A stretch of 64,000 bases of DNA from Bdellovibrionales bacterium (GTDB lineage: Bacteria; Bdellovibrionota; Bdellovibrionia; Bdellovibrionales; UBA1609): assembly GCA_965219095.1 (NCBI GenBank), contig OZ244719.1, forward strand, positions 416,001 to 480,000, in the 5' to 3' direction. The notes under the pieces were generated by a model. That model worked only from the letters and a program-made list of their open reading frames with translations, was not told where the DNA came from and did not search any database. This document shows positions 7,790-59,188 of this stretch, in pieces (the stretch's first letter is position 1; the number at the start of each line of letters is the position of its first letter). The position numbers and the translations under genes were made by a program.

Positions 7790-7990
7790 TACAAAAGAAA
7801 TTAGAGTTTATTTTTAATCAGAACTATCGTGATTTTCATATGCGTTCGTGTACGGAGTTTTGTCGTGATCAACTAGGTTCAATGTAGGGGAAAAGTCTTA
7901 ACATTCGGGAATAGATGGGTAGGTTAATTTATTATTTTCTTTTTGTTTTTTAGTGATTCTGCAAACTTACAAAAGTTTACAAATCAAGTT
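7790..7990 (+). repeat. Att-arm type A, ~200-bp segment preceding the pilin core
   Basis: Near-identical to 33281-33480 and to inverted 58870-59070. Confidence 0.75.
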
Positions 7991-8416
7991 ATAGGAATTC
8001 TTGCAGCAGTTGCCATTCCTGCATTCGATGGGTTTAGAAAAAAAGCACGAAGCGGTGAAGCTAAAACTAACTTAGGGGCTCTTTATACAGCAGAAAGAGC
8101 CTACTTTTATGAAGATGATAAATATTCAGACGTCCTAGCTACTATAGGATTTGAGAAACCTTCTGGAACACGCCACTACGCTATTGGTTTCACGGGTAAA
8201 GTGGGAGATAATTATTTCGGTGCTGGAACTACTGCCAAGGGTACAGTCACAGCCACACCTGCAACTTCAACAGTAGGAACAACTATGGCTGCTGCTAATT
8301 GCAAAGCAGGTACTTCTACTTTTAAAGCTTGTGCAACTGGAACTACAAATACTTCTGGCGATTGGAGTATAGAGCAGAACAAGGTCCTTGCTGAATGTTC
8401 TAGTAGAGGCTGTTAA
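7991..8416 (+). CDS. pilA: Leaderless type IVa pilin 3' cassette 1 (probably silent)
   Basis: IGILAAVAIPAF..KARSGEAKTNL pilin alpha-helix and C-terminal Cys pairs; no prepilin G|FTLIEL leader upstream. Confidence 0.85.
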   Translation: MGILAAVAIPAFDGFRKKARSGEAKTNLGALYTAERAYFYEDDKYSDVLATIGFEKPSGTRHYAIGFTGKVGDNYFGAGTTAKGTVTATPATSTVGTTMAAANCKAGTSTFKACATGTTNTSGDWSIEQNKVLAECSSRGC

Positions 8417-8455
8417 TAAATAATCATCCAATAGAACTGTTTAGTTTTGTCTTGA

Positions 8456-8490
8456 AAGAACTCCTCTTTAAAAGAGGGGTTCTTTTTTTT
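8456..8490 (+). terminator. Rho-independent terminator after cassette 1
   Basis: AAGAACTCCTCTT..AAGAGGGGTTCTT hairpin plus T-run. Confidence 0.8.
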
Positions 8491-8600
8491 GTTTTTCATC
8501 CTCAAAAACCCTTACAAATTTTAAGCCTATCGTGATTTCTTTCATAAGTTTTTCATCCCAAGTTTTCCTGCTAGAACCTTTTTGTCAAAATCTTTACAAT

Positions 8601-9803
8601 TCAACTGCTAGGATCACTTTCCCTTATCCTTAATGAGGACTCATTTAGGGTCTTTTGAGGGTGCGTAAGTGATTTTGTAAGTGATTTCGATTCGTACATG
8701 CTAGCCGTTCTTTCTGCCATATCAGAATTTATTAAAGCTACCGCTTTAGCATACCTTTGAGTCATAGCTTGATCTGTATGCCCAAGACTTGCTTGCACAG
8801 CGGAAAGACTTTTTGTCGCCATAAGTGCCATTGTGGCATAAGTATGACGGCAAATATGAGTCCCTCTCCAAGGAAGATTGCAGGCCTTAAAGGACTTATC
8901 AAAAGCCCAGCGAATGCTTGTATAAGACACCATTTCACCTTCTCTTGAATGAAAGACTAAGGGATTTTCGGGAGACTCACTTTTCATAACCCTTAACAAC
9001 TCCACAAGTCTCTCTGGAAGAACCAAAAGCCTGTTAGATGCTTTCGTTTTAGTGTCTTCACAGAGAGTTATTTTGTTACCTCCCCAATCAGCTGTCCTTA
9101 CCACACGTACAAATTTTTCTTCAAAGACAACTTCTTTCCACAAAAGCCCACAAGCTTCACTCACTCTAGCTCCTGTTAAAATCATAAACTTTGCCAGTCT
9201 ATAATAAACAGGGTTAGATATTTTCTGAAGCTTTTGAAGCCAAAGCTGTATTTCTTCTGGTCTAGCAAAGTAGTCAGGTCGTCTTAGTTTTTGAGTTGTC
9301 TCGTAGCAAATGTCTCTATGCATTTTCACTACAGGAACAACAAAGCTTGGATCAACGTAATTTCTCCACCAGTTTAGAACAGCTACAAGTCGCCTAAACT
9401 CTGTTTTAAAACTCTGTCTTTGTCTACACTTCTTAGTTTTCTTTTGAAACCAAGAAATCCAAAGGCTTATCTCCTTTGCCTTTAAGTCTAACATCTTGAC
9501 TTTATTTAAGGGGCTGTTAACTGAAAGATTTTTCAGATTCAATAAGATTTTTCTCTGGCTGGAAGCTCTCAGTTTAGGCAGATACTCTTTGATGTACTTT
9601 TCTACACAATCGCAAAAAAGCAATTCTTTAAGTTCTTTTTCTTCTATAGTTTCACCTTTTTCAAGGCGATCTTTTTCTCTATCATGCCAAATGTAAGCTT
9701 GAGTTTTGTTTTCAAAAACTTTACTCGAAAGCCTCACTCCTCTGACATACACTTGAGCTTGATAGACGTTCTTTTTTTTTCTTTTAATTTTAGTTACAGA
9801 CAT
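8601..9803 (-). CDS. int: Tyrosine recombinase / phage-type integrase
   Basis: Catalytic motifs TGARVSE, HICRH, LGH, RYA; N-terminal arm-binding-like domain. Confidence 0.95.
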   Translation of the reverse strand: MSVTKIKRKKKNVYQAQVYVRGVRLSSKVFENKTQAYIWHDREKDRLEKGETIEEKELKELLFCDCVEKYIKEYLPKLRASSQRKILLNLKNLSVNSPLNKVKMLDLKAKEISLWISWFQKKTKKCRQRQSFKTEFRRLVAVLNWWRNYVDPSFVVPVVKMHRDICYETTQKLRRPDYFARPEEIQLWLQKLQKISNPVYYRLAKFMILTGARVSEACGLLWKEVVFEEKFVRVVRTADWGGNKITLCEDTKTKASNRLLVLPERLVELLRVMKSESPENPLVFHSREGEMVSYTSIRWAFDKSFKACNLPWRGTHICRHTYATMALMATKSLSAVQASLGHTDQAMTQRYAKAVALINSDMAERTASMYESKSLTKSLTHPQKTLNESSLRIRESDPSS

Positions 9804-10072
9804 GATTTGAACTCCTTTCGTTCAATCCATTGCTGTAAGCGAGAAGACCTAAAATAAACCTTTCGGCCTATTTTTACATAAGGGATTTTCCTTAAAGAAA
9901 CCCAATTTTGTAAAGTCTTCTTAGATAAACCTAAATTTTCTGAAAGCTCCTCAATAGTTATTAAATTGTCAAAGAACAAGCCCTTTTTTTGAGGGCGAAT
10001 AGTGTTCTCTAAACTACTACTTTTCTTGATTGGTTTCAATTCTTTTTTATTCATTTTTATTTCTCCTTTCAA
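9794..10072 (-). CDS. Excisionase-like HTH protein
   Basis: LITIEELSENLGLSKKTLQNWVSLRKIPYVKIGRKVYF; overlaps the integrase start. Confidence 0.8.
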   Translation of the reverse strand: MKGEIKMNKKELKPIKKSSSLENTIRPQKKGLFFDNLITIEELSENLGLSKKTLQNWVSLRKIPYVKIGRKVYFRSSRLQQWIERKEFKSCL

Positions 10073-10119
10073 AATATAACGAGGGAGCTTAAAGCTCCCT
10101 CATTTGGTATTCTAAGCCT

Positions 10120-10740: not shown

Positions 10741-10746
10741 GTCTTC

Positions 10747-15017: not shown

Positions 15018-18000
15018 TTATAACAACCCCTTAATTTCTTCGATGACCTTCGGAAGATTGTTTTTAATTGACAGTTCATTAACTTTATGTAGTTTTATAT
15101 TACCTTCTCTGACCTTAGATAAATTGTCATCCGGAACATAACTAGGTGCTAATGGATGAGTTATAGTAATAATAATATTTTTTCCATTCTTTTGTGTAAC
15201 TAAAATTGAACCAGCTATATCTTTAATTCCTAAAGATTCTAGTGAAAAATTTTTCTTTACTTCAATTTCATCTATACTATTTTTTAAATACTCATATAAA
15301 CGATTAGTCGCTTGTTCTAATCTTTCTGAGGAAATCATTGGTAATTCATTTTCCATTAAATAGAGCAATAGAGCTGTTCCTAATTCTCTGTCTAAATAAC
15401 TGTGATCAAACTTATTTTTATAGCTTCTTATACATCTATAACACGAACTAACACATTCATCACTTGGACATTCTTTTAATATTTTTAAAGCCTGTTCAAA
15501 GAGTTTCTTTGGATCGTCTCCTGCTTTAGATGAGAATCCGGCTCCTCCAGGCAAAGTGTCATATAAATAAATCTCTACTCTTTTTCCAGAAGGCTCACAT
15601 TCTTTTAAAGATGACCTATATTCACCTTGAACTTCTCTTGTTTCTAAATCTAATATTTGAGTCGTAGCAAAACTTAAAGCTTCACATACAGTTCTTAAAG
15701 CGATTTTGGTATATACTGACTTTGGCTTTAAAATAACTGGATCATCTACATTTAAGGAAATTAATAGGATATCAGAAGGAAAATCTGTTCCTAAAACAAT
15801 TCCTTTAGAAATCATTGCTTTCTCGCAAATTTTTCCGCTAGGAGCATCTGGAAATGGTTTATGATGTTCTTTTTTCGGCATTAATTTACCTTTAGGAGTT
15901 TCAACAGGCTCAATGGAGCCACACTTTGCACAATAGCTATATCCTTTATTTTTAGGACCTCTATTAGTGACAAATAAATGTTGACGAGTAGAAAAAATTT
16001 TAATCCTTTTATTAAATTCATTCCAACTTTCTTGTTCTACAGGGGTTTGCAGTTTAGCTCTAGTAGCATAGCTTAGTTCGGGCTGATCTTCTGGCGAAGT
16101 TTTTGGTTCAATAGAAAAGGGGTGTGCAAATCCAGGAGGACGTAACCAAGGTTTTCCTGGCCCAAAAGAGTTCTCAGTTCTACAAGCAGGGCAATCTCTA
16201 AGACGACCTTTATTACTAGGTTCTGATTCAACTTTAGCATATTCGCAAATAGCATATTCACAAACTGAACACTCAAAGTAAACTTTTCTATTTTTCCATG
16301 CTTTAAAGAGCTCATTTGGTATAGGTGAGTATATTGCAGACGATTGCCACAATTTACCATCAATCCAAATATCTTTTCCTGGTGCATATTGCGAAAGAGC
16401 TGTAGATAAATTTTGAGATGGGGAGTATTGAAACTTTTTATTATAATAAGAATATTGCTTATCAAAAACATAAAAACAGACGACATCTGTGGGAAATGCA
16501 TAACGAGGCAATACCCCTTTATACAATAGGCGTTCAAGTAGATTTTCTGCTTCTGCTCGGCCGGCATTATTATTCGCACCCCCTTCTAAAGGTATTTCTA
16601 ATATATTTTTGTCTTCTATGTTTTCTTTTGACATATGCTTTGATTTCCTATTCTCATCAACCCTGATAGCGTCTTTAATGGGAGCTATTATTTTCTCTAA
16701 GTCCAATTTTATATCTTTTTGAATCTCTTTTGGAATCCAATTTGAGATTTCTTTTTTTAAAATAATACGGTTATCTTTAATCCATCTTTCAAAGTCTTTA
16801 AAATTTAACAAGGTTTCATCAGCCCTAAAATCATCAACAGTTCCTAAAACAGAAAATAAATCTTGATTAAGTTTATTAGGAGAAATATTTTGGCATTTTT
16901 TTCTATGATACATCTGCAAAAGATAAGCTCTTATGTGTCGTTCTGTTATACTGATATTATTAAGATTTAAAAATGGGTCCTTTACCTCACCTTTAATCAT
17001 TTGTTCAGGGGTCTTAAAATAATGTTCATCATGACTGTCAGTACTAGCATATCCAATTACAGTGGCAACAGCATTTGCTCTGCGACCGGCTCGACCAGAT
17101 CGTTGTTGATAGCTTGCTCTGCTGGGGGACATATTCCTAAGAGCTACGCCAGACAAGCTACCGATATCAATTCCAACCTCCATTGTGGTCGTACAAGAAA
17201 GCACGTCAATTGCAGGTCTGCCTAAACTCTCTTTACTTTCATCCAAATTTATATCTTGAAAAAGAAGTTCATATTCTTCAGCCTTTGAAAAGTTTTGCTC
17301 TAATTGAGTGGAATTAAGTTGGGCTGTATGTTCTGCAGTTATCAACGAAATAGGAGGTTTGTTATTTTCCAATAAATCTGTGGTTGGTTTTCGATAATAT
17401 TTTTTTCTTGCTGAGAACACACTATCTTCATCAGGGTTAATTTTTTCAGACGTATTTTTCCCACAATTAAAGCATACCTTCTTATCTGGAAAGGGTCTTT
17501 GAGTTGTTTTACATATATTGCAATAAGCCCATTCTCCTGTACAACTCAGAGTTACTTCACTTCCTCTTAATCTATATTTTCCATCGTCATATTTCTCACA
17601 AAAATGCTCGAGTAACTTTGGAAGCCAATATTTATTAAAAAAGTTCTTTGATTCTCTAAGAACAACTTTTTCAAAACCTCTAAATTTTCCTTTGTGTGAC
17701 TTAATATATTTATTATATTTTTCATTTGAATCTTGCTTCCAGTCATCTGGGCATATATCCATCCAAATCATGTTTTTTGTCCACTCTTTAATCCAAGTCC
17801 GGACTAATGCAATTTTTTGTTCCTCAGTTTCAGCAACACCAGATATGTCTGGAAGTTTTTTTAAGTCTTCTTTAGGATCAGGAAGTTCCACAATAGATGC
17901 TAAGGCTAAATCTTCAATTCCATAATAGTTTGCAAATAATACATCATAAATCCCGTGCAAGAGAGAGACGGGGGGTTTATAATTAATTGGGAAGTTTCTT

Positions 18001-20537
18001 ATTATCCTTTTATTTTTGTATCCATCATCAATCCATTCTTTTATCCTTTCTTCGTTCTTAAAATAGTTGGATTCATTTCCACCTGTTTCAGGATATAATC
18101 TTACCTTTTCCTTAACAGAAGCAAGTAAAACCGCTAGGTAGCAATGATTTAGACTTACCTCTTCACCAACCTCTTCACCAATTTTACTTAACTCATTGAA
18201 ACCTTTAATCAATAATGGCCTTAAAGCGTCTTTTGTAGAAAGAGATTTTAAATTTGGAGCTAATCTTGCTGCTACTTGTCTAGAATCAGAAAATATAAGA
18301 GTTTTTCGTCCTCTTAGGGGTGCAAAGCGAGTTGACTTCTGTGGGCCTGGAGGTTGGACAGATATTTGTTTTGTAACAAGAGCTTGGAAAGGTTGATCTC
18401 CACTTGTTTGATGATCTTGAATGGTAGATCGACCAAAGATTCCTCTCTTGTCACAAACAGCACAAGGGTAAAATTGACCTCGACTTCTATTTTTTAAAGG
18501 TTCATCTTGGATACTCTGTGATTGAATGTAGATTGATCTTACTCTATTTCCTCTACTATTATTAGGATTACACTGTCCAGATAATATGTCTAACTTAATT
18601 TCTAATGGTTTATCATCAGATGGCTTTTCTAGTAAAAGGTCAATAGGTTCTAGTCTTGAATTTTCTTTTTGTTCTTCTATTAAACTCTCTTTTTGATTCC
18701 ATAAAAAGCGAAGACTTTCTAATTCCTCCTCATTTTCTATCCATCCTCGCGCATATGCAGCACCACAATTCCTACATGTGTACAGTTCAAAAATTTTTGC
18801 CCCACACTTACAGGTATCTTTTGGTTGGCTATAAAGTTTGCCAGTTGGTCTTTTATCTTTATAGTCAGTAATCTGAGAACAGGCTTTATCTAAGCAAACC
18901 CAAAGGCCAGAAAGTCCTCTAAAAAAAGCATGAACCCTACATGGAAGCAAGCTAGATGATGAAGGGCTTTCTTTTGCCATGCTCGCTAAGGCAATTAAAT
19001 TACTAGTCGCTCTATCTCCTAAATCTTTTGAGATATCTGGAAATACTTTTTCTGATAAAGACTTAATAGATATGGCTTCTTGCATAGATATATTTATTAG
19101 TTTTTGAAGAGGTTCATATTCTTTTAGGGCATTATATAAAGACAAATAAATTGGTTTTTTAGATTCTATTTTTCGATATTCTAAAAATCTTTTAATTAAC
19201 CTTAGTTTTTCTTCTTCGTTAGAGTCATAAAATTGTTTTAAATTAATTTCTCTAAGTAGCCTAGCATCTTTTTCAACTCCATATCTTGCACTTTCTTTTA
19301 AATCTAACTCTCCAGTTATTACATTAAAATTTAAAGGGTCTTTTCCGGTAAGGTCAGCTACAAAATTCTTTGCAAGCTCGCTATCACTAAAGCTCGCACT
19401 AGTGCATATAATTTGCAGTCTTTCTGTTTCTATTCCTAACCGGGCTCTCAGTCGTCTCAGTAACAGAGCAACCTCTGCTCCAGCGGCTCCTCTATAAAGG
19501 TGGGCTTCATCTACTACTAATAGCAATTTCTCATTTGGATTTTTCCTAAGCCAAGAACAGGTCTTATCGAAAATACATTGTTCAATGGGTCTCATCAGCA
19601 TATATTCAAGCATAGAATAGTTTGTTACAAGTATGTCAGGAGGATTTTCAAAAACCTCATGTCTTGTAAGAAGTTCTGAATCTTTTAGCATGGTGTTACA
19701 TCGATTAAATTGATCATTTTTTTTCCAGTGTTGATTTTTTTCTCCATACCAAGCTCTTAAGTTTTCCTTAGCAGGCCATTTCCCTTTTTTCTTTAATTCA
19801 CTTATAAGTCTCTTTGCAGGTTCAGATTGGTTTTTATCCTTAGAGTTAGAGGCTTCAATATTCTTAATAAAGTAATCCTCTATAGGTTTTAATTTTTTTT
19901 TATCTTTATTTGAGTCACGAACACCAGGATATAAAGTTCTACTAGTATATCTTGAAAATCTAACTGGCCTTCCACTCCATCCAATAAATAAATCTTTTAG
20001 TCGAGAATCTCCAAATAATAACCTTAATCTGGCAAGCTGATCATTAACCAAAGCATTCATAGGGTAAAGGATTAAAGCTCTTACAGCAGATTCTTCTCCA
20101 AACCCTTTTTTCTTCAAAAAAGATTCTCGTGCTAACTTCCCTAAAATTGGAAGCAAAAAACACTCTGTCTTACCTGAACCTGTTCCAGTTGTTATTACAA
20201 CATCTCTCCCTTCGATAAGGGTTTTCTCAATTGCATCTGCTTGATGAGAATATGGTGGATTATAAATGAGTTTTTTATGGTCAGAGGTTTCTTTCAACAC
20301 AGTATTAAATGCTTGCAATATAGAATCATCTAGCTTTAAGTCTTCAAATTTATGTCCTAACTTATATCTTGGAGTGCTTTCTAAGTAAGGGGTTTGAAAT
20401 ATCACACCAGGTTTCTGAAGGAGTTTTTTCCTTTCCTTGATTAAAAATGGGTGGCTTATATGGTATGTAGCTTCAATGTAATTACAAAGTTCTTCTTGAA
20501 GCTCTGATATTGTCTGCCCTATGGTTTTACTTTCCAT
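15018..20537 (-). CDS. druE: Druantia DruE-like DEAD/DEAH helicase with DUF1998-type C-terminus
   Basis: 1839 aa; TGTGSGKT, YPMNALVNDQ, DEAH, TTTMEVGIDIG, QRSGRAGR, Zn-binding CxxC motifs, DTLPGGAG, CVSSCYRC. Confidence 0.85.
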   Translation of the reverse strand: MESKTIGQTISELQEELCNYIEATYHISHPFLIKERKKLLQKPGVIFQTPYLESTPRYKLGHKFEDLKLDDSILQAFNTVLKETSDHKKLIYNPPYSHQADAIEKTLIEGRDVVITTGTGSGKTECFLLPILGKLARESFLKKKGFGEESAVRALILYPMNALVNDQLARLRLLFGDSRLKDLFIGWSGRPVRFSRYTSRTLYPGVRDSNKDKKKLKPIEDYFIKNIEASNSKDKNQSEPAKRLISELKKKGKWPAKENLRAWYGEKNQHWKKNDQFNRCNTMLKDSELLTRHEVFENPPDILVTNYSMLEYMLMRPIEQCIFDKTCSWLRKNPNEKLLLVVDEAHLYRGAAGAEVALLLRRLRARLGIETERLQIICTSASFSDSELAKNFVADLTGKDPLNFNVITGELDLKESARYGVEKDARLLREINLKQFYDSNEEEKLRLIKRFLEYRKIESKKPIYLSLYNALKEYEPLQKLINISMQEAISIKSLSEKVFPDISKDLGDRATSNLIALASMAKESPSSSSLLPCRVHAFFRGLSGLWVCLDKACSQITDYKDKRPTGKLYSQPKDTCKCGAKIFELYTCRNCGAAYARGWIENEEELESLRFLWNQKESLIEEQKENSRLEPIDLLLEKPSDDKPLEIKLDILSGQCNPNNSRGNRVRSIYIQSQSIQDEPLKNRSRGQFYPCAVCDKRGIFGRSTIQDHQTSGDQPFQALVTKQISVQPPGPQKSTRFAPLRGRKTLIFSDSRQVAARLAPNLKSLSTKDALRPLLIKGFNELSKIGEEVGEEVSLNHCYLAVLLASVKEKVRLYPETGGNESNYFKNEERIKEWIDDGYKNKRIIRNFPINYKPPVSLLHGIYDVLFANYYGIEDLALASIVELPDPKEDLKKLPDISGVAETEEQKIALVRTWIKEWTKNMIWMDICPDDWKQDSNEKYNKYIKSHKGKFRGFEKVVLRESKNFFNKYWLPKLLEHFCEKYDDGKYRLRGSEVTLSCTGEWAYCNICKTTQRPFPDKKVCFNCGKNTSEKINPDEDSVFSARKKYYRKPTTDLLENNKPPISLITAEHTAQLNSTQLEQNFSKAEEYELLFQDINLDESKESLGRPAIDVLSCTTTMEVGIDIGSLSGVALRNMSPSRASYQQRSGRAGRRANAVATVIGYASTDSHDEHYFKTPEQMIKGEVKDPFLNLNNISITERHIRAYLLQMYHRKKCQNISPNKLNQDLFSVLGTVDDFRADETLLNFKDFERWIKDNRIILKKEISNWIPKEIQKDIKLDLEKIIAPIKDAIRVDENRKSKHMSKENIEDKNILEIPLEGGANNNAGRAEAENLLERLLYKGVLPRYAFPTDVVCFYVFDKQYSYYNKKFQYSPSQNLSTALSQYAPGKDIWIDGKLWQSSAIYSPIPNELFKAWKNRKVYFECSVCEYAICEYAKVESEPSNKGRLRDCPACRTENSFGPGKPWLRPPGFAHPFSIEPKTSPEDQPELSYATRAKLQTPVEQESWNEFNKRIKIFSTRQHLFVTNRGPKNKGYSYCAKCGSIEPVETPKGKLMPKKEHHKPFPDAPSGKICEKAMISKGIVLGTDFPSDILLISLNVDDPVILKPKSVYTKIALRTVCEALSFATTQILDLETREVQGEYRSSLKECEPSGKRVEIYLYDTLPGGAGFSSKAGDDPKKLFEQALKILKECPSDECVSSCYRCIRSYKNKFDHSYLDRELGTALLLYLMENELPMISSERLEQATNRLYEYLKNSIDEIEVKKNFSLESLGIKDIAGSILVTQKNGKNIIITITHPLAPSYVPDDNLSKVREGNIKLHKVNELSIKNNLPKVIEEIKGLL

Positions 20538-20541
20538 ATTT

Positions 20542-24448: not shown

Positions 24449-24468
24449 ATTTAAATTCCTTTCTGTTG

Positions 24469-25710: not shown

Positions 25711-26333
25711 TTTTTTCTTCCTTTTAGTGAGTATTTCCCTTTCTTTTTAAATTTTTTTCTATTTTCAAGAATCTTTCTTGTTTTCTCAACTTCTTGAGTG
25801 AAAAGCTTTACACTTGGAAGCTCTTTCGTGTACTTAGCTGTTAAAATTTTACCTGACATTCCTTCAAGAGCATATTGAACAAGAACATCATTTTTTCCCG
25901 CACATAATATCAATCCTACCGGAGGATTTTCGCCTTTTCTCATCCAGTGTCTTTTAGCATAATTTAAATACACGTTCATTTGTCCCGCATCTGCATGAGT
26001 AAAATTTCCTACTTTTAAGTCAATGATTACAAGACATTTTAAAAATCGATGGTAAAACACTAAATCTACACGAAACCAATGTCCGCCAATTCTTTCATGA
26101 ACATGAAGGGATACACTTGGAACCTCAAAGGAAGTCCACTCAGCTTTACCAGCCCACTGTAGTTGCGGATCTAAATAAGGGTCATACTGATATTTTTTAG
26201 CTTTAACTTTTGGACTTTCTCTTTTAGAAGTCACTCCTCCAACATGGGGATTGTTTTTTCTTTTATTTTTATGTTTATAAATTTCAATAGGCTTTGAAAC
26301 AGCAAGTTTCTTTTTTTTCTTCTTTTTCGCCAT
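25707..26333 (-). pseudogene. Chimera: type III-like DNA methyltransferase N-terminus fused to YhcG/DUF1016 nuclease C-terminus
   Basis: KRKNNP..YDPYLDPQLQWAGKAE..SLHVHERI followed by DLVFYHRFLKCLVIIDLK..DAGQMNVYLNY..NPPVGLILC. Confidence 0.7.
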
Positions 26334-39100: not shown

Positions 39101-39172
39101 AAGCCTTTTAGAAGCATAAGGAGCTTTTTTAATCTCTTTATGTGCAACCACTTCCCCTAAAAAGAAAATCAT
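36167..39172 (-). pseudogene. Coupling-protein gene disrupted by IS630 and a 1-bp deletion
   Basis: Pieces 38687-39172, 36547-37356 and 36167-36523 match 10747-12342; CCTATTTAGAG near 36550 vs CCTATGTTAGAG in element 1. Confidence 0.9.
37350..38758 (-). mobile_element. IS630-family element (transposase 37610-38674)
   Basis: TIRs TACCAATTACAGAAATTAATTCGACAT / ATGTCGAATTAATTTTTGGAAATGGTA; TA target duplicated; WQDE, MDRASWH, LPPYSPELNPME. Confidence 0.92.
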
Positions 39173-46400: not shown

Positions 46401-46715
46401 CAACATTAACTGCTTTTTAAAATTTTCTACTGCTTGATTCTTTAGTTTTCGAGCTAATTTATTATCTGGCTCTCTTAATTTAGATTCATCTTCTAAAAGC
46501 TCTTTTTTTAGCTGATAATTCGCACTATACATTCCAAGCAAAAGACGGCATTGGTTTTCTTCACCCCCCTTATACTCATTAATTGCTCTAGCAATTTTTT
46601 TCCAGCCTCTAAGGTTAAAGTAGCCTACAGAAATATCTGATCGGTAAGAGCGATTAAGAGCATTCTCTAGGCCAGATAAAAAAGAAACTTCTTTGTTGTC
46701 ATAAATTTTTGACAT
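43440..46715 (-). CDS. PLD-nuclease + SNF2-family helicase
   Basis: HAKLY..GSSNLT (PLD/HKD); DVVGLGKT, IIDESHN, LSATP, SEGQNLQ, QRVGRVDR. Confidence 0.88.
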   Translation of the reverse strand: MSKIYDNKEVSFLSGLENALNRSYRSDISVGYFNLRGWKKIARAINEYKGGEENQCRLLLGMYSANYQLKKELLEDESKLREPDNKLARKLKNQAVENFKKQLMLGVPSNEDENGLRLLAKQIREKKVIVKCFTRHPLHAKLYLTFNHKEFAEKIGFLGSSNLTLSGLEKQGELNIDVLDQSSCDYLCKWFEDKWQDQFSLDISEEIEKIIEESWAGETLYMPYHIYIKMAYHLSEDARKGLSDFFIPKELKDILFPFQSAAIRIATHHVMNKGGVLIGDVVGLGKTLQAVAIAKILEEENGWQTLILCPKNLERMWEDYRDKYGLRGRIMSISKVMYDLQELRRHHLVIIDESHNLRNPQGKRYKIIKDYIANNDSKCVLLSATPYNKTYSDLSSQLGLFLDSDQNIGIRPEKFLKEKEDSFQGNPSSLKAFEQSSHSEDWQQLMSLFLIRRTRTFIKEYYGNKDDTGYYLEIKGKKNYFPNRIAKTVKYSIDKQYRRFFSDEVVDMINDLELPRYALSKYKRPDLKNLTDKEKKLFKDLEQARSQPRGFCRINLFKTLESSGYSFLQAIQRHILRNCIFIYAIDSKDNLIVKDSGSDIITNAFDENEGDITGFSQEDNERTYFFTEFDNFYKKGKKAYDEYKRKGSKSIRWISSSYFTEELRKNLRQDTEKLIDLLKKSQKWNPKKDFKLKKLESLLRNECKEKKALIFTQYKDTAKYLENELKNRGIEKLNLVTGGMSNIQDSIHRFSPKSNDYGIKNENEEEIDILIATDILSEGQNLQDCHVVVNYDLPWAIIKLIQRVGRVDRIGQKSDKILCYSFMPDQELEKIINLQARVQRRLKENAEVIGTDESFFGGDRKIIIDLYNEKSEVLEKEVFSDIDLPSQALSVWEEAIKKDPALEEKIKNMPDVIHSTKEHSSLSDVLLFAKSHITNYLMQINEKGEVLTENQFKILETAKCQPETKPLEKRENHYEVVRNGLKSIEESIKSIDMIGRLGGTRNPRRKVSELLEKKENKDDILLQLQDDIFKYSLSNDSENTLKRMFRRKVSESEIISYIVEKDKNETLLNKKEEKRMDEKPRIVCSMGLVKK

Positions 46716-46717: not shown

Positions 46718-49700
46718 TTAAGAGGCCTTTTTAATGAACTTATCTTTTTGATAAGCATTAAGGGCAGATTCCTTTAATTTTTCTAATCTTTCTCTATTTT
46801 TTCCTGTCTTAAAGGTACTTAAAATGTATTCAAATTCTTTAAGGCTAAATCCATAAGTGTAGGTGACCATAGCATCAATTTCTCCCTGGAGTTTTAAACG
46901 CTCGTTTTTATCTTTTACCCCGCCTCTTTTTACTCTTATCTCATCTGCTAGATCATCAAACTTTTTTCCTATGCAGGTTAAAAGAGCTGATCGTTTTACA
47001 ATTTCTTTAAAGTAAGGGTCCTTTTCAGTAAGTCTGGGAATTCTTAAAGGGGTAATGTACTTCTTGTTTATATTAGAAGAGACTTTTTGCCTAATAAAGT
47101 AGTCCACAATAAAGCTATTGAAAAAAGCTTGTAGAAAAAGCATATAGTGATTGTTTTTCTTGGGATTTTCTGAATTTATATACACTCCATAAAGACTATT
47201 TGAGATAAAGTGATTTTTTGGAATCACCGCTGAAATAAGACTTCTTTCATTGGTATTGCTTGCTATCGTTCGAATGACAAGACGATGGTTTTCATAGCAT
47301 TTGTTTTTGAAAGCAAAGCCTGTTCTATTTTGCACTTTATGATCGTTTCTATCAATATAGCGATTGGCTTTTGAAAGATCAAAATTATATTGAAATTGAT
47401 GAATAACACTTCCTTTGTAAAGAGGAAGGTAACTTGAGAATAATTTTTTATCTTTGAATAAATCAGCATCATTTTTTTCATCAAATTCTCTGTAAAGCTC
47501 TACATTCCAAGAGTTTTTTAAATTTTCTCCTAGCATTGGAAAGCTAAGTATTTTTTTTAAAAGGTTTCTATCCCTTAAGTTTTTGAATTCAATGATTTGA
47601 CAATCACGAGGAGAAAGTTCTTTTATTTCCTTTATAGACTGCTTCATTGAATTCTCATTGGGGAATGAATTTAAAATTCTAAGACTTCTTGTATGAAAAT
47701 GGCAAGGAAACTTATCTTGAGGCTTTTCATTTTTTAAATTCAAAATAAGAAATTTAAACCTTGAATCAACTCCCTCAAATATTTTTCCCTTTCTGCCTTC
47801 CATTTTATTTTGAAAATCAATGAGACTTTCTATTTTAAGATTATCAAAAATAAAACATCTTAAAGCTATGGCTCCGTCATCTTTTGAAAGACCGCTAGGA
47901 AGCACGGCTCCGATAACCCCATTTTTATTTAAAAGATTAAAGCACCTTTCTGTAAATAAAAGATAGGTGTTCATATCTGAACTTGCATTCTTTTCTGTAC
48001 CGTCTGATTCGATAATTTTTCCCGTCTGCTTTTCATAAAATGAAGAAAAATAATTTCTTTGAAATTGGTAGAATTCTTCTGTTTTTAAGTAATCAGTTGC
48101 TATTTTGCCTTTGTTTAACAGTTCCTCTCTTTTTTCCTCAAACTCTTTCTTATCATTTTTTTTCTTTTTTATAGATTTATCATACCTAGAAAAAAACTCT
48201 CTATCTTCAGTTTTAACCTTATCCCAAGGAGGGTTTGTTACAATAACATCAAAACCTCCTCTATCTATAATATCATTAAAAGCAATGTCCCAATGAAAGG
48301 GATTTAAATTTTTAGAATCATCTTCACTTTCAAAATCTTTTGGAAATACACTTCGTTTCTTTATTGTTTTCTTTTTGCCTTTAATTTCTGTGATTTCAGG
48401 ATATCTCAAGCCCTTTTCATTGCATTTATTAGCAAGAGTACGGCTTAGGTTAGAATTATTTTCTTCTAAAAATTTATGTATTTTTTCTTTTAGTTCTTTC
48501 AATTTATCAAAAGACAAGGGTTTCTTTTTATAGTTATTAACTAGCTTATTGTATTCATCTTTAATTTGAGGGTAAGATTTGTCTAAAAGAGATAGTTGCC
48601 CTTTATTAGGTTCTTTTAAAAAGCCTATGAGAGAGTTTCCATGCATAATATTAAAGTCCATATTAGGAAGAGGTTCTAACTCTTCCATGGTTAAAGCTGA
48701 GCTTACAAGGGATAAGAAAAGCCTCAGTTTACAAACTTCTGTGGCTTCTTTCATAATGTCAACACCGTATAGGTTTTTAAGTATAATGTTCTTTTTTATA
48801 CCGTAAGGTATGCTTTTATGGTCATTTCTAAAATTTTCATACCAATTTTTTAAATCTCTGTTATTTGATGTTTCTATTTTTCCAATAACAGGTGAGTATA
48901 TGTTAAGTAGCTCTTTCATAGCAGAAACTAGAAAGGCTCCAGAACCTACAGCTGGATCTAAAATTGTTAGCGTATTTAAAATGCTATCTTCGTTTGTAAG
49001 TAAAACCTTACAAAGATTTGTGTCGAGATTTAGATTCATATCACTGATAGTCTTAAATGAGTGACCTTTTTTGCTTAGCTTATCTAGAATGCATTTTTCA
49101 ATGGTATTTCTACTAAGATATGAAGTAATCTCATCTTTAGTGTAGTAGGCACCCATACTTTTTTGCTGAATTTCAGTAATGTATTTTTCAAAAATATAGC
49201 CTAAAACATCTGGACTGATTTCTTTTCCCTCACCCTTACTATCTTCAATATGCCACTCGTATTTAGAAAATATATCAAATGTTTTTTCAAAAGCTTTGTC
49301 TTTTATTTTTATATCAGGATACTTATTTTCTATAAGATGTGGGGTAAAAAGTCCACCGTTTAGGTACTTGATTTCACCGAGCATTTTTTTTGCTTCTTTA
49401 CTTCTTTCTTTTAGTTTTTTTGCAAACCCCTCAAAAAATAAAAGCTTTAGAAAATTGGAATAGTAGATATCTTTTTTTGTTTTTTTTAGTTCCTCTAGCT
49501 TATCGTTCAAGTAGTTATAGTTATTATCTACAAACCCTTTTTTTTGTAAAAACCAAATAAACATTAGCCTATTAAGGACAACGGAAGAGTACCAGTTTTT
49601 ATCTTCTTTCTTATCAATTCCAGAGATATATTTTTGGAAATCGAAATGGTTGTTCTTGAAGTCTTCATAAAACTTCTTAGTAACTTTTTCTGTATCAAAA

Positions 49701-50158
49701 GCTTTTTCTAGCTTTTCTCCTATTTCAGATATTTTTGGCTCATCTTCAATGTTAAAATGTATATTTGCAATTTTACTTATAAAGAAATCCCCGTTTTGAT
49801 TTTTATAGAAGTCATGAACTCTAACTTTATTATTTTTTGAAAGATAAGACCATGAGCAATAGGTTTTATTATCAGAAAAGATGAGAATATGTTTGTTATG
49901 AATTTTCTTTATTTCTTTATGAACTTTTTCCCTATTTAAATCAAAATTTTTAAGATTTTCTTCTCTAAATTGTAATACTTTTGCTCCGCCAATCTCTGCT
50001 AGGGGAGAGTATTCTATTTTTTTAGAACTATCTATACGGATTGACCGATTCTTTTTATCTTCTGAGCAATTCCAACCCAGACCCTCCGTGAACAATTCTC
50101 GTAGCTTAAAATCTCCAAGACATTCTCGTAGCTTCTTAGCATTGATAGGCGATGACAT
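46718..50158 (-). CDS. Eco57I/type IIG-like N6-adenine DNA methyltransferase with TRD
   Basis: YLNGGLF, GAYYT, LDPAVGSGAF (motif I), FDVIVTNPPW (motif IV), C-terminal TRD-like region. Confidence 0.88.
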   Translation of the reverse strand: MSSPINAKKLRECLGDFKLRELFTEGLGWNCSEDKKNRSIRIDSSKKIEYSPLAEIGGAKVLQFREENLKNFDLNREKVHKEIKKIHNKHILIFSDNKTYCSWSYLSKNNKVRVHDFYKNQNGDFFISKIANIHFNIEDEPKISEIGEKLEKAFDTEKVTKKFYEDFKNNHFDFQKYISGIDKKEDKNWYSSVVLNRLMFIWFLQKKGFVDNNYNYLNDKLEELKKTKKDIYYSNFLKLLFFEGFAKKLKERSKEAKKMLGEIKYLNGGLFTPHLIENKYPDIKIKDKAFEKTFDIFSKYEWHIEDSKGEGKEISPDVLGYIFEKYITEIQQKSMGAYYTKDEITSYLSRNTIEKCILDKLSKKGHSFKTISDMNLNLDTNLCKVLLTNEDSILNTLTILDPAVGSGAFLVSAMKELLNIYSPVIGKIETSNNRDLKNWYENFRNDHKSIPYGIKKNIILKNLYGVDIMKEATEVCKLRLFLSLVSSALTMEELEPLPNMDFNIMHGNSLIGFLKEPNKGQLSLLDKSYPQIKDEYNKLVNNYKKKPLSFDKLKELKEKIHKFLEENNSNLSRTLANKCNEKGLRYPEITEIKGKKKTIKKRSVFPKDFESEDDSKNLNPFHWDIAFNDIIDRGGFDVIVTNPPWDKVKTEDREFFSRYDKSIKKKKNDKKEFEEKREELLNKGKIATDYLKTEEFYQFQRNYFSSFYEKQTGKIIESDGTEKNASSDMNTYLLFTERCFNLLNKNGVIGAVLPSGLSKDDGAIALRCFIFDNLKIESLIDFQNKMEGRKGKIFEGVDSRFKFLILNLKNEKPQDKFPCHFHTRSLRILNSFPNENSMKQSIKEIKELSPRDCQIIEFKNLRDRNLLKKILSFPMLGENLKNSWNVELYREFDEKNDADLFKDKKLFSSYLPLYKGSVIHQFQYNFDLSKANRYIDRNDHKVQNRTGFAFKNKCYENHRLVIRTIASNTNERSLISAVIPKNHFISNSLYGVYINSENPKKNNHYMLFLQAFFNSFIVDYFIRQKVSSNINKKYITPLRIPRLTEKDPYFKEIVKRSALLTCIGKKFDDLADEIRVKRGGVKDKNERLKLQGEIDAMVTYTYGFSLKEFEYILSTFKTGKNRERLEKLKESALNAYQKDKFIKKAS

Positions 50159-51952: not shown

Positions 51953-52285
51953 AGCCGAATTCACTCTTTGGTAAGTTATCCATAGCTCTTTTCATAAAGA
52001 GATGGAGTCCAAAGACTTTGGTGTTGACACTATAGGATAAACATGTCCTTAGGAGTTCGTTAGTTAATAAATGCTTGCGAACTAACGTATTCTTTTGAAC
52101 TCTTTTCATCAAATTATTTTTATTTCCTCAATTTCATGTGTGATCTATAGGTGATCAATAATTAAAATGTGGGTACTATCGAGAAGTTTCAGGAAAATCA
52201 AGGTGCTTACAGTAATGGATAAGTTATTTATATTTATTTATTTTTTACTGATTCCAACAACATAGCAGATCTCTTTTAGCCGATT

Positions 52286-52705
52286 ATAGGAATTCTTGCA
52301 GCAGTTGCCATTCCTGCATTCGATGGGTTTAGAAAAAAAGCACGAAGCGGTGAAGCTAAAACTAACTTAGGCGCTCTTTATACAGCAGAAAAAGCTTTTA
52401 GTTATGAGCACTCAGGCTACTGTGCTAGTCTTGGAACAATAGGTTTTGAAGAACCCCAAGGAACACGCCACTACGCTATTGGCTTTCATTCTACAGGTAA
52501 CAAAGCTAACTCAGCAGTTACAAATTGTACTGTTACAGGAGAAAATTATGACTCTAATGGTGGAGGTACCCCTATTACTGCTATAACGGGTACATCATGT
52601 AAAGTAGACCCTGTAGACAAATTTATAGCTTGTGCTGAAGGAGAAATGGCTTCAACAAATTCCAACTGGAAAATTGATGATGAGAAAGTAATAGGTCAGC
52701 TATAA
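52286..52705 (+). CDS. pilA: Leaderless type IVa pilin 3' cassette 3 (not in ORF track)
   Basis: Hand translation IGILAAVAIPAFDGFRKKARSGEAKTNLGALYTAEKAFSYEHSGYC...FIACAEGEMASTNSNWKIDDEKVIGQL*; in-frame TAG at 52277-52279 and no standard start codon before the core. Confidence 0.88.
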   Translation: MGILAAVAIPAFDGFRKKARSGEAKTNLGALYTAEKAFSYEHSGYCASLGTIGFEEPQGTRHYAIGFHSTGNKANSAVTNCTVTGENYDSNGGGTPITAITGTSCKVDPVDKFIACAEGEMASTNSNWKIDDEKVIGQL

Positions 52706-52855: not shown

Positions 52856-54082
52856 TCATTTCACTTCCAAAATTTCTTTGCCTTTAAGTTTAAGAGGTGA
52901 AGCTTTGAAGCTTGTTTCTGAAAGTTGGTTTAAACTTTCTAATTCATACATCTGAGCTGTTTTTTCCGCCATATCCGAGTTAATGAGAGCTACCACTTTC
53001 GCATACCTTTGAGTCATAGCTTGATCCTTATGTCCAAGACTTGCTTGGACAGCTGAGAGGCTCTTTGTGGCCATCAAAGCCATTGTGGCATAAGTATGAC
53101 GGCAAATGTGAGTTCCTCTCCAAGGAAGTCCGCAAGCTCTAAAAGACTTATCAAAAGCCCAGCGAATGGTCGTATAAGGCACAATTCCACCTTCCATTGA
53201 ATGAAAGACTAAGGGGTTTTTGGAATGTTTCTTTATGGCTTTTAACATCTCTATAAGTTTATCAGGAAGAGTAAGCACTCTAACCGAGGTCTTTGTCTTT
53301 GTTGATTCCCTAATCTGAGGAACATCTAAAGCCCAATCAGCTGTTCGAACCACTCTTGCAAACTTGTTTCTAAAATCAACTTCTTTCCACATAAGTCCAC
53401 ACGCTTCACTTACTCTCGCTCCTGTTAAAATCATAAACTGGGCTAAGTGGTAGTAAACAGGATTAGAGATCTTTTCAAGCTCAGAAAGCCACTTTCTAAT
53501 CTCTTCAGGTTTAGCAAAGTAATCAGGCCTTTTGATTTTTGAAGGCCTCTGATGTTGATAGCACCTGTTTCTATGTCCTTGGACAATGGGAAAGGTAAAG
53601 CTAGGATCAATGTTGTTCCTCCACCAATGAAGAACTGAGCCTAAACGTCTTAACTCCATTTTAAAAGAGTGACGTTGATTTTTGCACTTTTGCTTCTTAA
53701 AAAGCCATTCAATCCAATGATCTATACTGATGTGATGTAAGTTTGACATTCTAACTTTTGCTAAAGGACTGTTAAGTAAGAATTTTTGGCATATGTTTTG
53801 AATTTTCTTTTGACTGCTAGCTCTTAAAGAAACAACATACTCTTTAAGATATCTTTTTACACAATCTTCAAAGAAAATCTCCTCTCTTTCTTGTGGAAGA
53901 AAGTTAGTTCCATGAAAAAATCGTTGCTTTTGTTTTTCTTCCCATAGAATAGCTTCCGTCTTTGTTGGAAAAGACTTGGATTTGACACGAACTCCTCTAA
54001 CATACACTTGAGCATAATAGACAGTTTTATTTTTTCCTTTTCTTTTTGTTATCGACATGATTTCTCCTTTTGTTGAAGCCAT
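52856..54082 (-). CDS. int: Tyrosine integrase, divergent paralog (likely start at MSITKRK)
   Basis: TGARVSE, HICRH, LGH, RYA; C-terminal half close to the other two integrases, core-binding region diverged. Confidence 0.95.
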   Translation of the reverse strand: MASTKGEIMSITKRKGKNKTVYYAQVYVRGVRVKSKSFPTKTEAILWEEKQKQRFFHGTNFLPQEREEIFFEDCVKRYLKEYVVSLRASSQKKIQNICQKFLLNSPLAKVRMSNLHHISIDHWIEWLFKKQKCKNQRHSFKMELRRLGSVLHWWRNNIDPSFTFPIVQGHRNRCYQHQRPSKIKRPDYFAKPEEIRKWLSELEKISNPVYYHLAQFMILTGARVSEACGLMWKEVDFRNKFARVVRTADWALDVPQIRESTKTKTSVRVLTLPDKLIEMLKAIKKHSKNPLVFHSMEGGIVPYTTIRWAFDKSFRACGLPWRGTHICRHTYATMALMATKSLSAVQASLGHKDQAMTQRYAKVVALINSDMAEKTAQMYELESLNQLSETSFKASPLKLKGKEILEVK

Positions 54083-54357
54083 TTCTCTAACTTATCATTC
54101 GGGAAATAGACGTTTCGGCCTATTTTCAAGAAAGGGATTTTTCTCATAGACATCCAATTACGGATGGTCTTAGGAGAAATTTCCAAAAACTCCGAAAGCT
54201 CTCTAAGGTTTATTAAATTGTCAAAGAACAGGCCCTTTTTTTGAGGGCGAATAGTGTTCTCTAAGCTACTATTTTTTTTGATTGGTTTCAATTCTTTTTT
54301 ATCCATTTTTATTTCTCCTTTTAAAATATGGCGAAGAAGCTTAAAAAGCTCCCTCAT
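54049..54357 (-). CDS. Excisionase-like HTH protein (likely start at MDKKEL)
   Basis: LINLRELSEFLEISPKTIRNWMSMRKIPFLKIGRNVYF. Confidence 0.8.
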   Translation of the reverse strand: MRELFKLLRHILKGEIKMDKKELKPIKKNSSLENTIRPQKKGLFFDNLINLRELSEFLEISPKTIRNWMSMRKIPFLKIGRNVYFPNDKLEKWLQQKEKSCR

Positions 54358-57532: not shown

Positions 57533-57894
57533 GTGGTTTTAAAAAAAAAATTCTTTTAAATAGCCTCACTGCGACATCTCTCTCTAACCTACTGTAAAAA
57601 CAAGAAAATAAGAAAGTGCCAGATAAAAAAGTGCCAGAAAGATGCCGCTAGAGATAATACAACAATTAAATCCGCTTTCAAAAGTAATACAAAAGCTAAG
57701 CTCTTATAAAACTACAAGTAACTTATCACACACTTAGTTTTTTTAGAGTGAGTTCAGAGTAAAAAATTAAGGAACCTTAGAGAACTTTCAGGAAATTTTA
57801 AGATAGATAGTGACGGCTAAGTTGTTAATTTTATTATTTCCTTTTAAATTTTTTAATGATTCTAAGAACTTACAAAAGTTCACAGACCATTTTT

Positions 57895-58341
57895 ATAGGA
57901 ATTCTTGCAGCATTTGCCATTCCTGCATTCGATGGGTTTAGAAAAAAAGCACGAAGCAGTGAAGCTAAAACCAATTTAGGGGCTCTTTTTACTGCACAGA
58001 AAGCTTTTTTCTATGAACACTCAACTTATTGTGCTCATCTAGCTGATGTAGGTTTTTCTGTAACCGGAGCAGACACATATTACACCATTGGTTTTGGTGC
58101 GAACTCTGGTGGTAGTAATAGTGGTTGTACCGCAGGTACTGCACCTGACTGGAAATCAGATGGCAGTAAAGCAACTGCACAAGCTCCTGAAGCAGCTTGT
58201 GATGCTGACACAACAGATTTTACTGCTGGTGCAGTCGGTCCAAAGGATGGTACTGACCTTATAGACGTAGATAGTAACTATCGTATGGACCAAACAAAGA
58301 AGCTTAACTCCAATAGTATTTTCGACAAAGCTGGTTGTTAA
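57895..58341 (+). CDS. pilA: Leaderless type IVa pilin 3' cassette 4 (terminal, most divergent)
   Basis: Core with one V>F change; no integrase follows. Confidence 0.85.
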   Translation: MGILAAFAIPAFDGFRKKARSSEAKTNLGALFTAQKAFFYEHSTYCAHLADVGFSVTGADTYYTIGFGANSGGSNSGCTAGTAPDWKSDGSKATAQAPEAACDADTTDFTAGAVGPKDGTDLIDVDSNYRMDQTKKLNSNSIFDKAGC

Positions 58342-58377
58342 TAACAAAGCCTAATTCTTAGAAACACTTCTTAAGTT

Positions 58378-58410
58378 TTTCAAACCCCTCTCTTAAAGAG
58401 GGGTTTGAAA
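58378..58410. terminator. Hairpin between convergent cassettes 4 and 5 (probable shared terminator)
   Basis: TTTCAAACCCCTCT-CTTAA-AGAGGGGTTTGAAA. Confidence 0.7.
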
Positions 58411-58428
58411 TGAAGTTTAGATATTTTT

Positions 58429-58869
58429 TTATTGACTCGCAATTTTTTTGTTTTGATCAATTTGCCAGTTGGAATTTGTTGAAGCCGTTTCTCCTTCAGC
58501 ACAAGCTATGAACTTCTCAGGAGTTGTTGGAGTTGCTTCTTCTGTTAAGCAAGCAGCATCCAGATCCGATGCTGATTTTTTATTAGCAGTAGTAGCAGTA
58601 GAATCATAAGCTAGTGTTCCTGAGGAGGGACAAGCAGCAGAAGCAGCACTAGTTGTACCTGCAGCCTTAAATCCAACAGCGTAGTGGCGTGTTCCATCAG
58701 GTTCATCAAAACCTACTGCTTTAAGATTAGAACAGAAGCCGTTTTGTTCATAGAAAAAAGCTTTCTGTGCAGTAAAAAGAGCCCCTAAGTTAGTTTTAGC
58801 TTCACCGCTTCGTGCTTTTTTTCTAAACCCATCGAATGCAGGAATGGCAACTGCTGCAAGAATTCCTAT
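58429..58869 (-). CDS. pilA: Leaderless type IVa pilin 3' cassette 5 (inverted)
   Basis: Same core on the minus strand, preceded by arm type A. Confidence 0.85.
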   Translation of the reverse strand: MGILAAVAIPAFDGFRKKARSGEAKTNLGALFTAQKAFFYEQNGFCSNLKAVGFDEPDGTRHYAVGFKAAGTTSAASAACPSSGTLAYDSTATTANKKSASDLDAACLTEEATPTTPEKFIACAEGETASTNSNWQIDQNKKIASQ

Positions 58870-59188
58870 AAATTGATTTGTAAACTTTTGTAAGTTTGCA
58901 GAATCACTAAAAAACAAAAAGAAAATAATAAATTAACCTACCCATCTATTCCCGAATGTTAAGACTTTTCCCCTACATTGAACCTAGTTGATCACGACAA
59001 AACTCCGTACAAGAACGCATATGAGAATCACGATAGTTTTGATTAAAAACAAACTTTAATTTCTTTTGTACTTACTTTTGAAAGCCAGGATTTAATTGTT
59101 GTATTATCTCTAGCGACATCTTTCTGGTACTTTCTTATTTTCCTGTTATATTACAGTAGGTTAGAGAGAGATGTTGCAGTGAGGCTAT

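Follow-up and report, generated by a model that had tools for sequence, protein, structure and literature searches.

Type IV pili serve in adhesion and motility and often act as receptors for phages, and the routes by which pilin variation is already known to arise are gene conversion, small inversions and shufflons. In Neisseria, one expression locus, pilE, is accompanied by several silent pilS copies that lack a promoter and a leader, and the pilin bodies are mosaics. In the R64 and IncI shufflon, a single recombinase, Rci, acts on sfx sites and exchanges the C-termini encoded by pilV through short invertible segments, altering a minor pilin at the pilus tip. Inversion also operates at sapA of Campylobacter fetus, where a promoter segment inverts between opposed cassettes in a RecA-dependent manner, and at tfpQ/tfpI of Moraxella, where Piv is not a tyrosine recombinase. 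Here we describe a 64,000-nucleotide stretch from a Bdellovibrionales bacterium (the window; positions 416001-480000 of contig C1 in a genome of two contigs, C1 and C2), which appears to be the middle of an island of about 98 kb extending from C1:411347 to about C1:509100. We consider it probable, at roughly three chances in four, that this island was built by serial site-specific integration of tyrosine-integrase elements into the major type IV pilin gene, a reading that rests on the assembled sequence.

The closest known case is prophage e14 (and phage 21) in icd of Escherichia coli. In PMC13626634 (citing Hill et al. 1989), e14 is described as supplying a substitute 3' end to icd, with icdC persisting and with excision rejoining icd to icdC. 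Only the last part of the icd protein is substituted, with two residues changed. The two cases share intragenic integration, an in-frame substitute 3' part and a displaced part kept distally as a silent fragment. They differ in that here 142 of the 154 mature residues are replaced, the alternative bodies are 48-54% identical, the target is a major pilin, seven elements are stacked, and the elements are not phages and carry defence cargo and a coupling-ATPase gene. An earlier note on this DNA had not recognised the mechanism as a described one; e14 in icd is a known conceptual precedent for it, and the full-text literature searched contained no description of a pilin gene as an integrase attachment (att) site.

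One leader-bearing junction and a sharp boundary

The earlier note had placed the start of five pilin C-terminal regions at one and the same nucleotide, and all five positions were recovered: the 11-mer TTATAGGAATT occurs exactly at window positions 7989, 33479, 52284 and 57893 on the plus strand and at 58871 on the minus strand (coordinates without a contig prefix are those of the window). Taken alone this 11-mer is weak, with eight matches at up to one mismatch against 4.35 expected. Its 34-nucleotide (nt) extension proved decisive, with nine copies on C1 (eight exact and one with a single mismatch) and a decayed partial copy on C2. On C1, five copies lie on the plus strand (411347, 423989, 449479, 468284 and 473893) and four on the minus strand (474871, 483036, 500776 and 506772). 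Alignment of the nine revealed identity over 62 nt from the first T, broken by a single nucleotide polymorphism in cassette 4, and zero identity directly upstream of this core unless the upstream arm was of the same type. The genome thus holds nine pilin bodies with a shared start nucleotide, five of them inside the window.

In frame, the core copies read IGILAAVAIPAFDGFRKKAR..., the second half of the type IV pilin N-terminal helix, and the variable body follows. Among the eight distinct bodies, none of 21 third codon positions varied within nt 1-62, compared to 10 of 21 within nt 63-125; the 62-nt block is therefore constrained as DNA and not only as protein. Upstream of the core, five mutually unrelated arm types were found (L, A with four copies, B with two, C and X), all stopping at one nucleotide, and since homologous recombination needs homology on both sides, it could not by itself create such a boundary. 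A sixth kind of left arm, that of the remnant on C2, is joined within 4 nt of the same boundary.

The only leader-bearing copy of the pilin is a 166-amino-acid (aa) open reading frame (ORF) at C1:411277-411777, 4.65 kb left of the window, in the flank where the earlier note had predicted a leader-bearing pilin with the same core and had staked its reading on finding one. This expressed copy has the ribosome-binding site AAAGGAGG and reads MKKIQKIKKQKG|FSLIELMVVVA before entering the core in frame at the shared nucleotide, such that the ribosome-binding site, the prepilin leader and GFSLIELMVVVA are fused in frame at the core boundary. It scored 40.9 bits against PF07963 N_methyl (cut-off 21.2) and 37.3 bits against TIGR02532 (cut-off 16.3), and it alone combines the class III signal peptide G|F-x-x-x-E, the hydrophobic helix and the globular body of a type IV (a) major pilin. 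Downstream of the pilin come a terminator, a 399-aa integrase in convergent orientation and an excisionase-like gene. The bacterial attachment site (attB) lies inside coding sequence, in that the leader-bearing ORF runs unbroken across the core into an element-linked body and eight displaced bodies have been kept. A BLAST search with the L arm and a prepilin motif scan found no second leader arm in the genome, including for the mirrored right half of the array. Sigma-70-like matches upstream of the expressed gene were no commoner than in shuffles, and no sigma-54-type motif was seen there by eye. Genes for pilus machinery, namely a prepilin peptidase, PilT and secretins, are located elsewhere in the genome.

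The eight silent bodies (c1 to c8) lack the leader, Glu5 and a Shine-Dalgarno sequence, and all eight are open over 129-148 codons. Two are preceded by a stop two codons upstream, including the TAG at 52277-52279 that the earlier note had read before cassette 3, and its description of the five window copies as leaderless was also borne out, all five being in frame with the core and without a G|F(S/T)LIE leader. The five window bodies matched Pfam Pilin_PilA or Pilin_GH, those of cassettes 2 and 5 above the curated cut-off and three just below it; c2, c5 and c7 pass Pilin_PilA, and c5 passes Pilin_GH as well. An AlphaFold2 prediction on the 8-row pilin alignment was too poor to use (mean predicted local distance difference test score 43.3, predicted template modelling score 0.27).

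Seven elements, their arms and their cargo

Self-comparison of C1:400001-520000, together with ORF lists and protein family scans, resolved seven elements (eA to eG). Each spans core to core and consists of a pilin body, a terminator-like hairpin, a convergent integrase gene, an excisionase-family helix-turn-helix (HTH) gene, backbone or cargo genes and a distal arm; the hairpins and the PF00589 and HTH_17 matches after cassettes 1-3 agree with the order of terminator, convergent tyrosine integrase and Xis-like gene that had been noted earlier for three cassettes. The elements are as follows.

eA, expressed copy to c1, 12.6 kb: 399-aa integrase; insertion sequences and unknown ORFs; arm A
eB, c1 to c2, 25.5 kb: 400-aa integrase; TraD-like ATPase, Druantia DruA/D/E, PDC-S02 nuclease, Schlafen/AlbA, IS66; arm A
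eC, c2 to c3, 18.8 kb: 400-aa integrase; HKD-Snf2, type IIG restriction-modification enzyme; arm B
eD, c3 to c4, 5.6 kb: 408-aa integrase; small ORFs; arm C
eE, c6 to c5, minus strand: 399-aa integrase; arm A
eF, c7 to c6, 17.7 kb, minus strand: 400-aa integrase; E1-E2-JAB ubiquitin-like operon; arm B
eG, c8 to c7, minus strand: 399-aa integrase; arm A

All seven integrase genes are open and fall into three types (399, 400 and 408 aa), the copies within a type being nearly identical. The three window integrases and three scanned outside it scored 73-77 bits against PF00589 (cut-off 27.1), and the integrases matched the phrog_1 integrase with E values of 1e-53 to 1e-58. In Pfam scans an HTH_17 gene adjoins each of the seven, and the HTH_17 protein of cassette 1, the one scanned against NCBIfam, passes the TIGR01764 'excisionase' model with 44 bits (cut-off 28.8). 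A 62-nt identical block stands at both ends of every element together with element-specific arms, and the type of integrase matches that of the arm in six of seven cases, the 399-aa type occurring with arm A (three elements), the 400-aa type with arm B (two) and the 408-aa type with arm C (one). The exception is eB, in which an IS66 element marks the transition to a right end identical to the one of eE. Arm A before c1 is 95-96% identical to the arms before cassettes 2 and 7 and 89% identical to the arm before cassette 5.

The expressed body is the same as silent body c6, and the two copies are 99.68% identical over 3730 bp, from the core through the body, the integrase and the excisionase, with different left arms (the leader arm and arm B, respectively). 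The expressed copy and c6 thus look like the same element at two att sites, as judged from this alignment. The same backbone is present at 98.2% identity in eG, which has a different body.

At its integrase end an element carries the 62-nt core, a body of 129-148 aa without promoter or leader, and a terminator, its far end being a type-specific arm. We propose that insertion occurs between the Ala11 and Ile12 codons of the mature pilin, so that the promoter and leader already in place, together with the first 11 residues, become joined to the body that the element brings, the former body being shifted behind the element to become a silent cassette. Repeated integration would have left the locus as it now stands, with seven elements whose integrases are of three types, a single expressed pilin and eight open but silent bodies. 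On excision, the next body would be exposed again, in last-in, first-out order; recombination between opposed cores would turn large segments around, and cassettes of the mirrored half could in this way reach the leader. Defence genes and a new pilus surface would arrive in the same element. We infer integrase catalysis of the joins, a crossover site within the block and any present-day activity or phenotype from the anatomy, with its arm-integrase pairing and intact integrase and excisionase genes.

The elements resemble the integrative mobilizable elements and defence islands found at tRNA genes or gene 3' ends in the placement of integrase and excisionase at a single end, in their direct repeats, in accretion in tandem at one att site and in defence cargo. 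They differ in that the target is the interior of the major pilin gene and the restored part is a functionally different allele rather than a copy. The features of the window are listed below.

1-7789: right part of eA, which starts outside the window at C1:411347
3-731: IS66-family transposase fragment in eA
938-2314, minus strand: ISL3 transposase in eA
2583-3161, minus strand: HTH protein in eA
5308-7590, minus strand: 760-aa protein, one of the unknown ORFs in eA
7790-7988, plus strand: arm A, right end of eA, abutting core copy 1
7989-8050, plus strand: core copy 1, 62 nt
7991-8416, plus strand: silent body c1, 141 aa from Ile12 of the mature pilin
8454-8486, plus strand: terminator-like hairpin after c1
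8601-9803, minus strand: tyrosine integrase of eB, 400 aa
9794-10072, minus strand: excisionase-family HTH protein of eB, 92 aa
10747-12342, minus strand: TraD/VirD4-like coupling ATPase, 531 aa
12369-13727, plus strand: backbone trio of 143, 182 (DUF4423) and 130 aa, common to elements with the 400-aa integrase
15018-25710, minus strand: Druantia type I (DruE 15018-20537, DruD 20542-21639, DruA 24469-25710)
21602-24448, minus strand: 948-aa protein between DruD and DruA, in the DruB/DruC position, with no Pfam, PADLOC or NCBIfam match
25707-26333, minus strand: YhcG/PDC-S02 nuclease
27038-28483, minus strand: Schlafen AlbA_2 / HATPase_c_4 protein
29044-30468, minus strand: IS66-family transposase at the seam where eB switches to an arm-A-type right end
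32286-33161, minus strand: 291-aa repeat-rich protein adjoining arm A
33280-33478, plus strand: arm A, right end of eB
33479-33540, plus strand: core copy 2
33481-33894, plus strand: silent body c2, 137 aa
33914-33942, plus strand: terminator-like hairpin after c2
34021-35223 and 35214-35492, minus strand: 400-aa integrase and excisionase-like protein of eC
36167-39172, minus strand: coupling-ATPase gene in pieces, with an IS630-family (DDE_3) insertion at 37610-38674
43440-46715, minus strand: HKD-Snf2 helicase, cargo of eC
46718-50158, minus strand: type IIG restriction-methyltransferase, cargo of eC
52120-52283, plus strand: arm B, right end of eC, ending ...TTTTAGCCGA with the in-frame TAG
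52284-52345, plus strand: core copy 3
52286-52705, plus strand: silent body c3, 139 aa
52725-52751, plus strand: terminator-like hairpin after c3
52856-54082 and 54049-54357, minus strand: 408-aa integrase and excisionase-like protein of eD
57824-57892, plus strand: arm C, related to A, right end of eD
57893-57954, plus strand: core copy 4, G>T at position 21
57895-58341, plus strand: silent body c4, 148 aa, innermost cassette of the direct half-array
58429-58869, minus strand: silent body c5, 146 aa, innermost cassette of the mirrored half-array
58810-58871, minus strand: core copy 5, inverted
58872-63315, minus strand: right end of eE with arm A, the 291-aa protein, two HTH genes and a frameshifted IS66
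58747-63315: right copy of a 4.6-kb inverted repeat, covering core copy 5 and the first nt of c5

The cargo is rich in genes associated with anti-phage functions, including Druantia, the type IIG restriction-modification enzyme, Schlafen/AlbA and a ubiquitin-like system. The last of these is the eF operon at C1:490997-494907, encoding a pentapeptide-repeat protein, a multiubiquitin-domain protein, a prokaryotic E2, an E1(ThiF)-JAB fusion and a DUF6527 protein, a set that belongs to the ubiquitin-like conjugation systems reported to defend against phages. In eC, the ATPase and AlbA genes are disrupted by IS630-family insertions. The island is flanked by housekeeping genes, a transaldolase gene on the left and the genes for BamB and a glutamate/leucine dehydrogenase on the right.

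The 4.6-kb inverted repeat (29036-33603 and 58747-63315, 99-100% complementary) takes in IS66, two HTH genes, the gene for the 291-aa repeat protein, arm A and the core, together with the initial 125 nt of a body. If homologous recombination were to act across it, about 25 kb would be turned around, altering which cassettes face the leader. Further IS66 copies are found at window positions 1-739 and elsewhere in the island. At the far right, C1:506773-507336, which abuts the c8 core, holds fragments of at least three repeat families, each with about 10-40 genome copies at 94-100% identity, and the genome as a whole is rich in insertion sequences and degenerate integrase fragments.

A short motif, CTGCTAG(A/G)A, is repeated in cassette orientation at a distance of 520-635 nt downstream from the cores, in the interval that separates the pilin terminator from the stop codon of the integrase (8565-8612 and 34020-34032 in the window, C1:411867 and C1:411966, and mirror copies). 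This interval contains 11 of the 17 matches in the island, and the genome-wide frequency is 0.034 per kb; at a guess, the motif may be an arm-type integrase site or a regulatory site. An early idea that the shared upstream arm was an intron or a tRNA-type att site was ruled out, Rfam and tRNA scans of the window being empty.

Objections and competing explanations

Several observations weigh against serial integration into the pilin gene. Around the boundary, the best candidate dyad of core-type sites matched at only 6 of 9 positions and was not convincing, and a 62-nt identity is long for a core. The mirrored right half-array (c5-c8) is inverted and leader-free, with multi-copy insertion-sequence debris abutting the c8 core, and the simple model does not explain its origin; this half may be what is left of a second, convergent pilin gene, or a large inversion may have produced it. 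Among the scanned ORFs there was no Pfam match to a relaxase, a mating pore or type IV secretion. The TraD/VirD4-like ATPase scored 98.7 bits against SXT_TraD, below the 366-bit cut-off, and of the seven elements four have this coupling ATPase only in broken form or as a 200-aa fragment, eD lacks it and two have it intact, raising the possibility that some elements may be fossils. The convergent cassette-integrase arrangement of the window was found in none of 80 related loci with this integrase family, and the searched set contained no same-genus genome to show an empty site.

The public data are likewise no help to this reading. Four public contig-set runs from one study, compared to C1:405501-425500, gave no junction beyond the assembled ones. 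Flank depth was about 4-8, and one contig enters the core from the left flank and ends 29 nt in. The joints listed involve a multi-copy repeat near positions 4155-4200 of that interval and insertion sequences, none of them being at the core. Part of eA had lower or no cover in some runs, from which we draw no inference. The assembly itself is in two contigs.

A further objection comes from the bodies. Those of c1 and c2 are 96% identical over nt 1-202, unrelated over nt 203-600 and 97% identical again from the integrase module onward, and the first half of c4 resembles c5 (97%), its C-terminal half resembling c8 at the protein level. A body always leaves with the integrase on its right, which means that new combinations of body and backbone cannot come from site-specific recombination at the core, and from these near-identical integrase modules (97-99%) with unrelated body halves it appears that homologous exchange must also shape the cassettes. 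The earlier proposal that integration or excision swaps the pilin and pushes the old allele downstream is supported: the arms behave as the distal arms of an element's own att site (attP), with the six-of-seven pairing. The mirrored half and the mosaics fall outside its simple form.

The mosaics also speak for a pilS-like store, in which silent copies would feed RecA-dependent gene conversion and the integrases would be bystanders. As in pilS, the silent copies lack the promoter, the leader and the 5' coding end with its first 11 residues; they have in common 62-202 nt of near-identical 5' sequence and, in some cases, 3' ends; and the expressed body equals c6. However, the identity between the expressed copy and c6 runs 3.3 kb past the body through the integrase, indicating a duplicated element rather than a converted gene, and conversion would not produce arms that all stop at the same exact nucleotide. 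Moreover, seven of the nine bodies are linked to an integrase-excisionase pair whose type tracks the type of arm, and, in contrast to pilE, there is no G-quadruplex motif in C1:409000-412000, which includes about 2.3 kb upstream of the expressed gene. We consider it unlikely that conversion accounts for the locus; it probably acts in addition to integration, leaving the architecture unexplained.

Improbable, too, is a giant shufflon-like system in which the integrases chiefly invert DNA between opposed cores. Such a system would share with the shufflon a tyrosine recombinase, repeats within a type IV pilin gene and exchange of C-terminal segments, and it would fit the cores in both orientations (five plus, four minus), the tail-to-tail arrangement of c4 and c5, which have no integrase between them, and the finding that, at 3 of the 80 related loci, inverted pilin segments enclose an integrase of the same family. 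In contrast to the shufflon, five of the nine cores are direct repeats, between which a recombinase would delete rather than invert, the segments are 5.6-25.5 kb long, and nearly the whole major pilin is exchanged. There are seven integrases, of three types, and each is accompanied by an excisionase-family gene, a type-specific distal arm and 5-25 kb of cargo, an anatomy that marks discrete integrated elements, and the minus-strand cassettes have the same element structure as those on the plus strand.

An assembly artefact, in which strain variants of a one-element locus were threaded through the repeat into a false array, could be entertained for a two-contig assembly with complex repeats, among relatives whose record titles read 'MAG', but is very improbable given that the modules differ by scattered substitutions (99.68%, 98.2% and 96-99% identity) rather than being collapsed copies, that the mirror arms are not palindromic copies (c4 differs from c5, and eD from eE), that attR-type junctions of arm, core and cassette occur in four arm types where one-element strains would give one each, and that insertion sequences interrupt individual copies at different places.

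Judged by the features that define pilE/pilS, the shufflon and Piv, the locus falls outside all three, and it may work partly like the first two. One further copy of the module, a decayed cassette with its integrase, lies at C2:2315400-2317660. Its body is 89% identical to c3, with a frameshift and stops, and is followed by an integrase fragment that matches the 408-aa type at 96.6% identity. On its left, this copy is joined, 4 nt inside the core, to the antisense of a beta-propeller-like ORF, and it may be a secondary-site insertion.

Related genomes and implications

Integrases 43-48% identical to those of the island were found in genomes titled Bdellovibrionales, Bdellovibrionota or Oligoflexia, and the 80 loci surveyed revealed a recurrent association with pilins. 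In 14 of them a pilin lies within 4 kb of the integrase, in orientations other than that seen here, and three (L049, L081 and L082) contain leaderless pilin bodies with sharp boundaries of their own. The integrases between inverted pilin segments form a compact switch layout at L049:2600-5950 and L081:2800-6600, and also in L051. In L049 and L081, the integrase separates a leader-bearing pilin on one strand from a leaderless body on the opposite one, with inverted arms of 173-195 nt, and the boundary is sharp in both species (...ATTC|CTGCATA, or in longer form ...GCAATTC|CTGCATATAATGAG). This layout fits a candidate switch in which a segment containing promoter, leader and recombinase would flip between two outward-facing bodies, and it is these switches, rather than the window, that inversion at sapA or by Piv resembles. 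In L082:296-790, a leaderless body (*LIDLLVVVAIIGVLAAVAIPAY...) begins about 70 nt after the integrase stop; its boundary has TTATAGA, like the TTATAGG at the window boundary, in different pilin codons.

A different arrangement was found in genome G016, in which five complete pilin paralogues (L045, L047, L050, L053 and L084) each have an integrase of this family nearby. The paralogues differ in their upstream arms and have in common a block that opens about 50 nt before the start codon and closes about 110 nt beyond the codon at which the leader is cleaved; no leaderless pilin copy was found in this genome. From these comparisons the integrase family looks pilin-dedicated across the clade. 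The pilin linkage in related genomes is independent support for action on pilin 5' sequences, and it also raises the weight of inversion as a second mode at the present locus.

The exact 34-mer had no matches in metagenome contigs, and a pilin-profile scan of the metagenomes returned 80 ordinary leader-bearing pilins, with this integrase family in none of the 80 loci. Viral contigs likewise held no match to the 34-mer, and the integrase profile found only distant integrases there, at most 32% identical.

More tentatively, and at what we would put at well under even odds, the tyrosine recombinases of this clade could be dedicated to the 5' part of pilin genes and be used in two ways, as compact invertible switches in small genomes and, here, as the integration module of defence elements. 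Such elements would alter the pilus surface, a common phage receptor, while bringing in Druantia, restriction and other defence genes, with receptor replacement itself serving as a mobile trait against phages or competitors, and with the eight silent bodies forming a repertoire usable through excision (last in, first out), inversion between opposed cores and homologous patch exchange.

If the variable part of the major pilin is the att-proximal end of a mobile element, then transfer, gain of defence and change of the cell surface would be one event. A repertoire of silent cassettes can arise as a by-product of serial integration, which may bear on the origin of pilS-like archives. The 62-nt site and three related integrases with distinct arms would constitute natural orthogonal tools for in-frame gene replacement. 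Work on Bdellovibrio pilA reportedly suggests that pili are important for contact with prey or host cells in this group; thus, more speculatively, a pilin swap could affect host or prey range.

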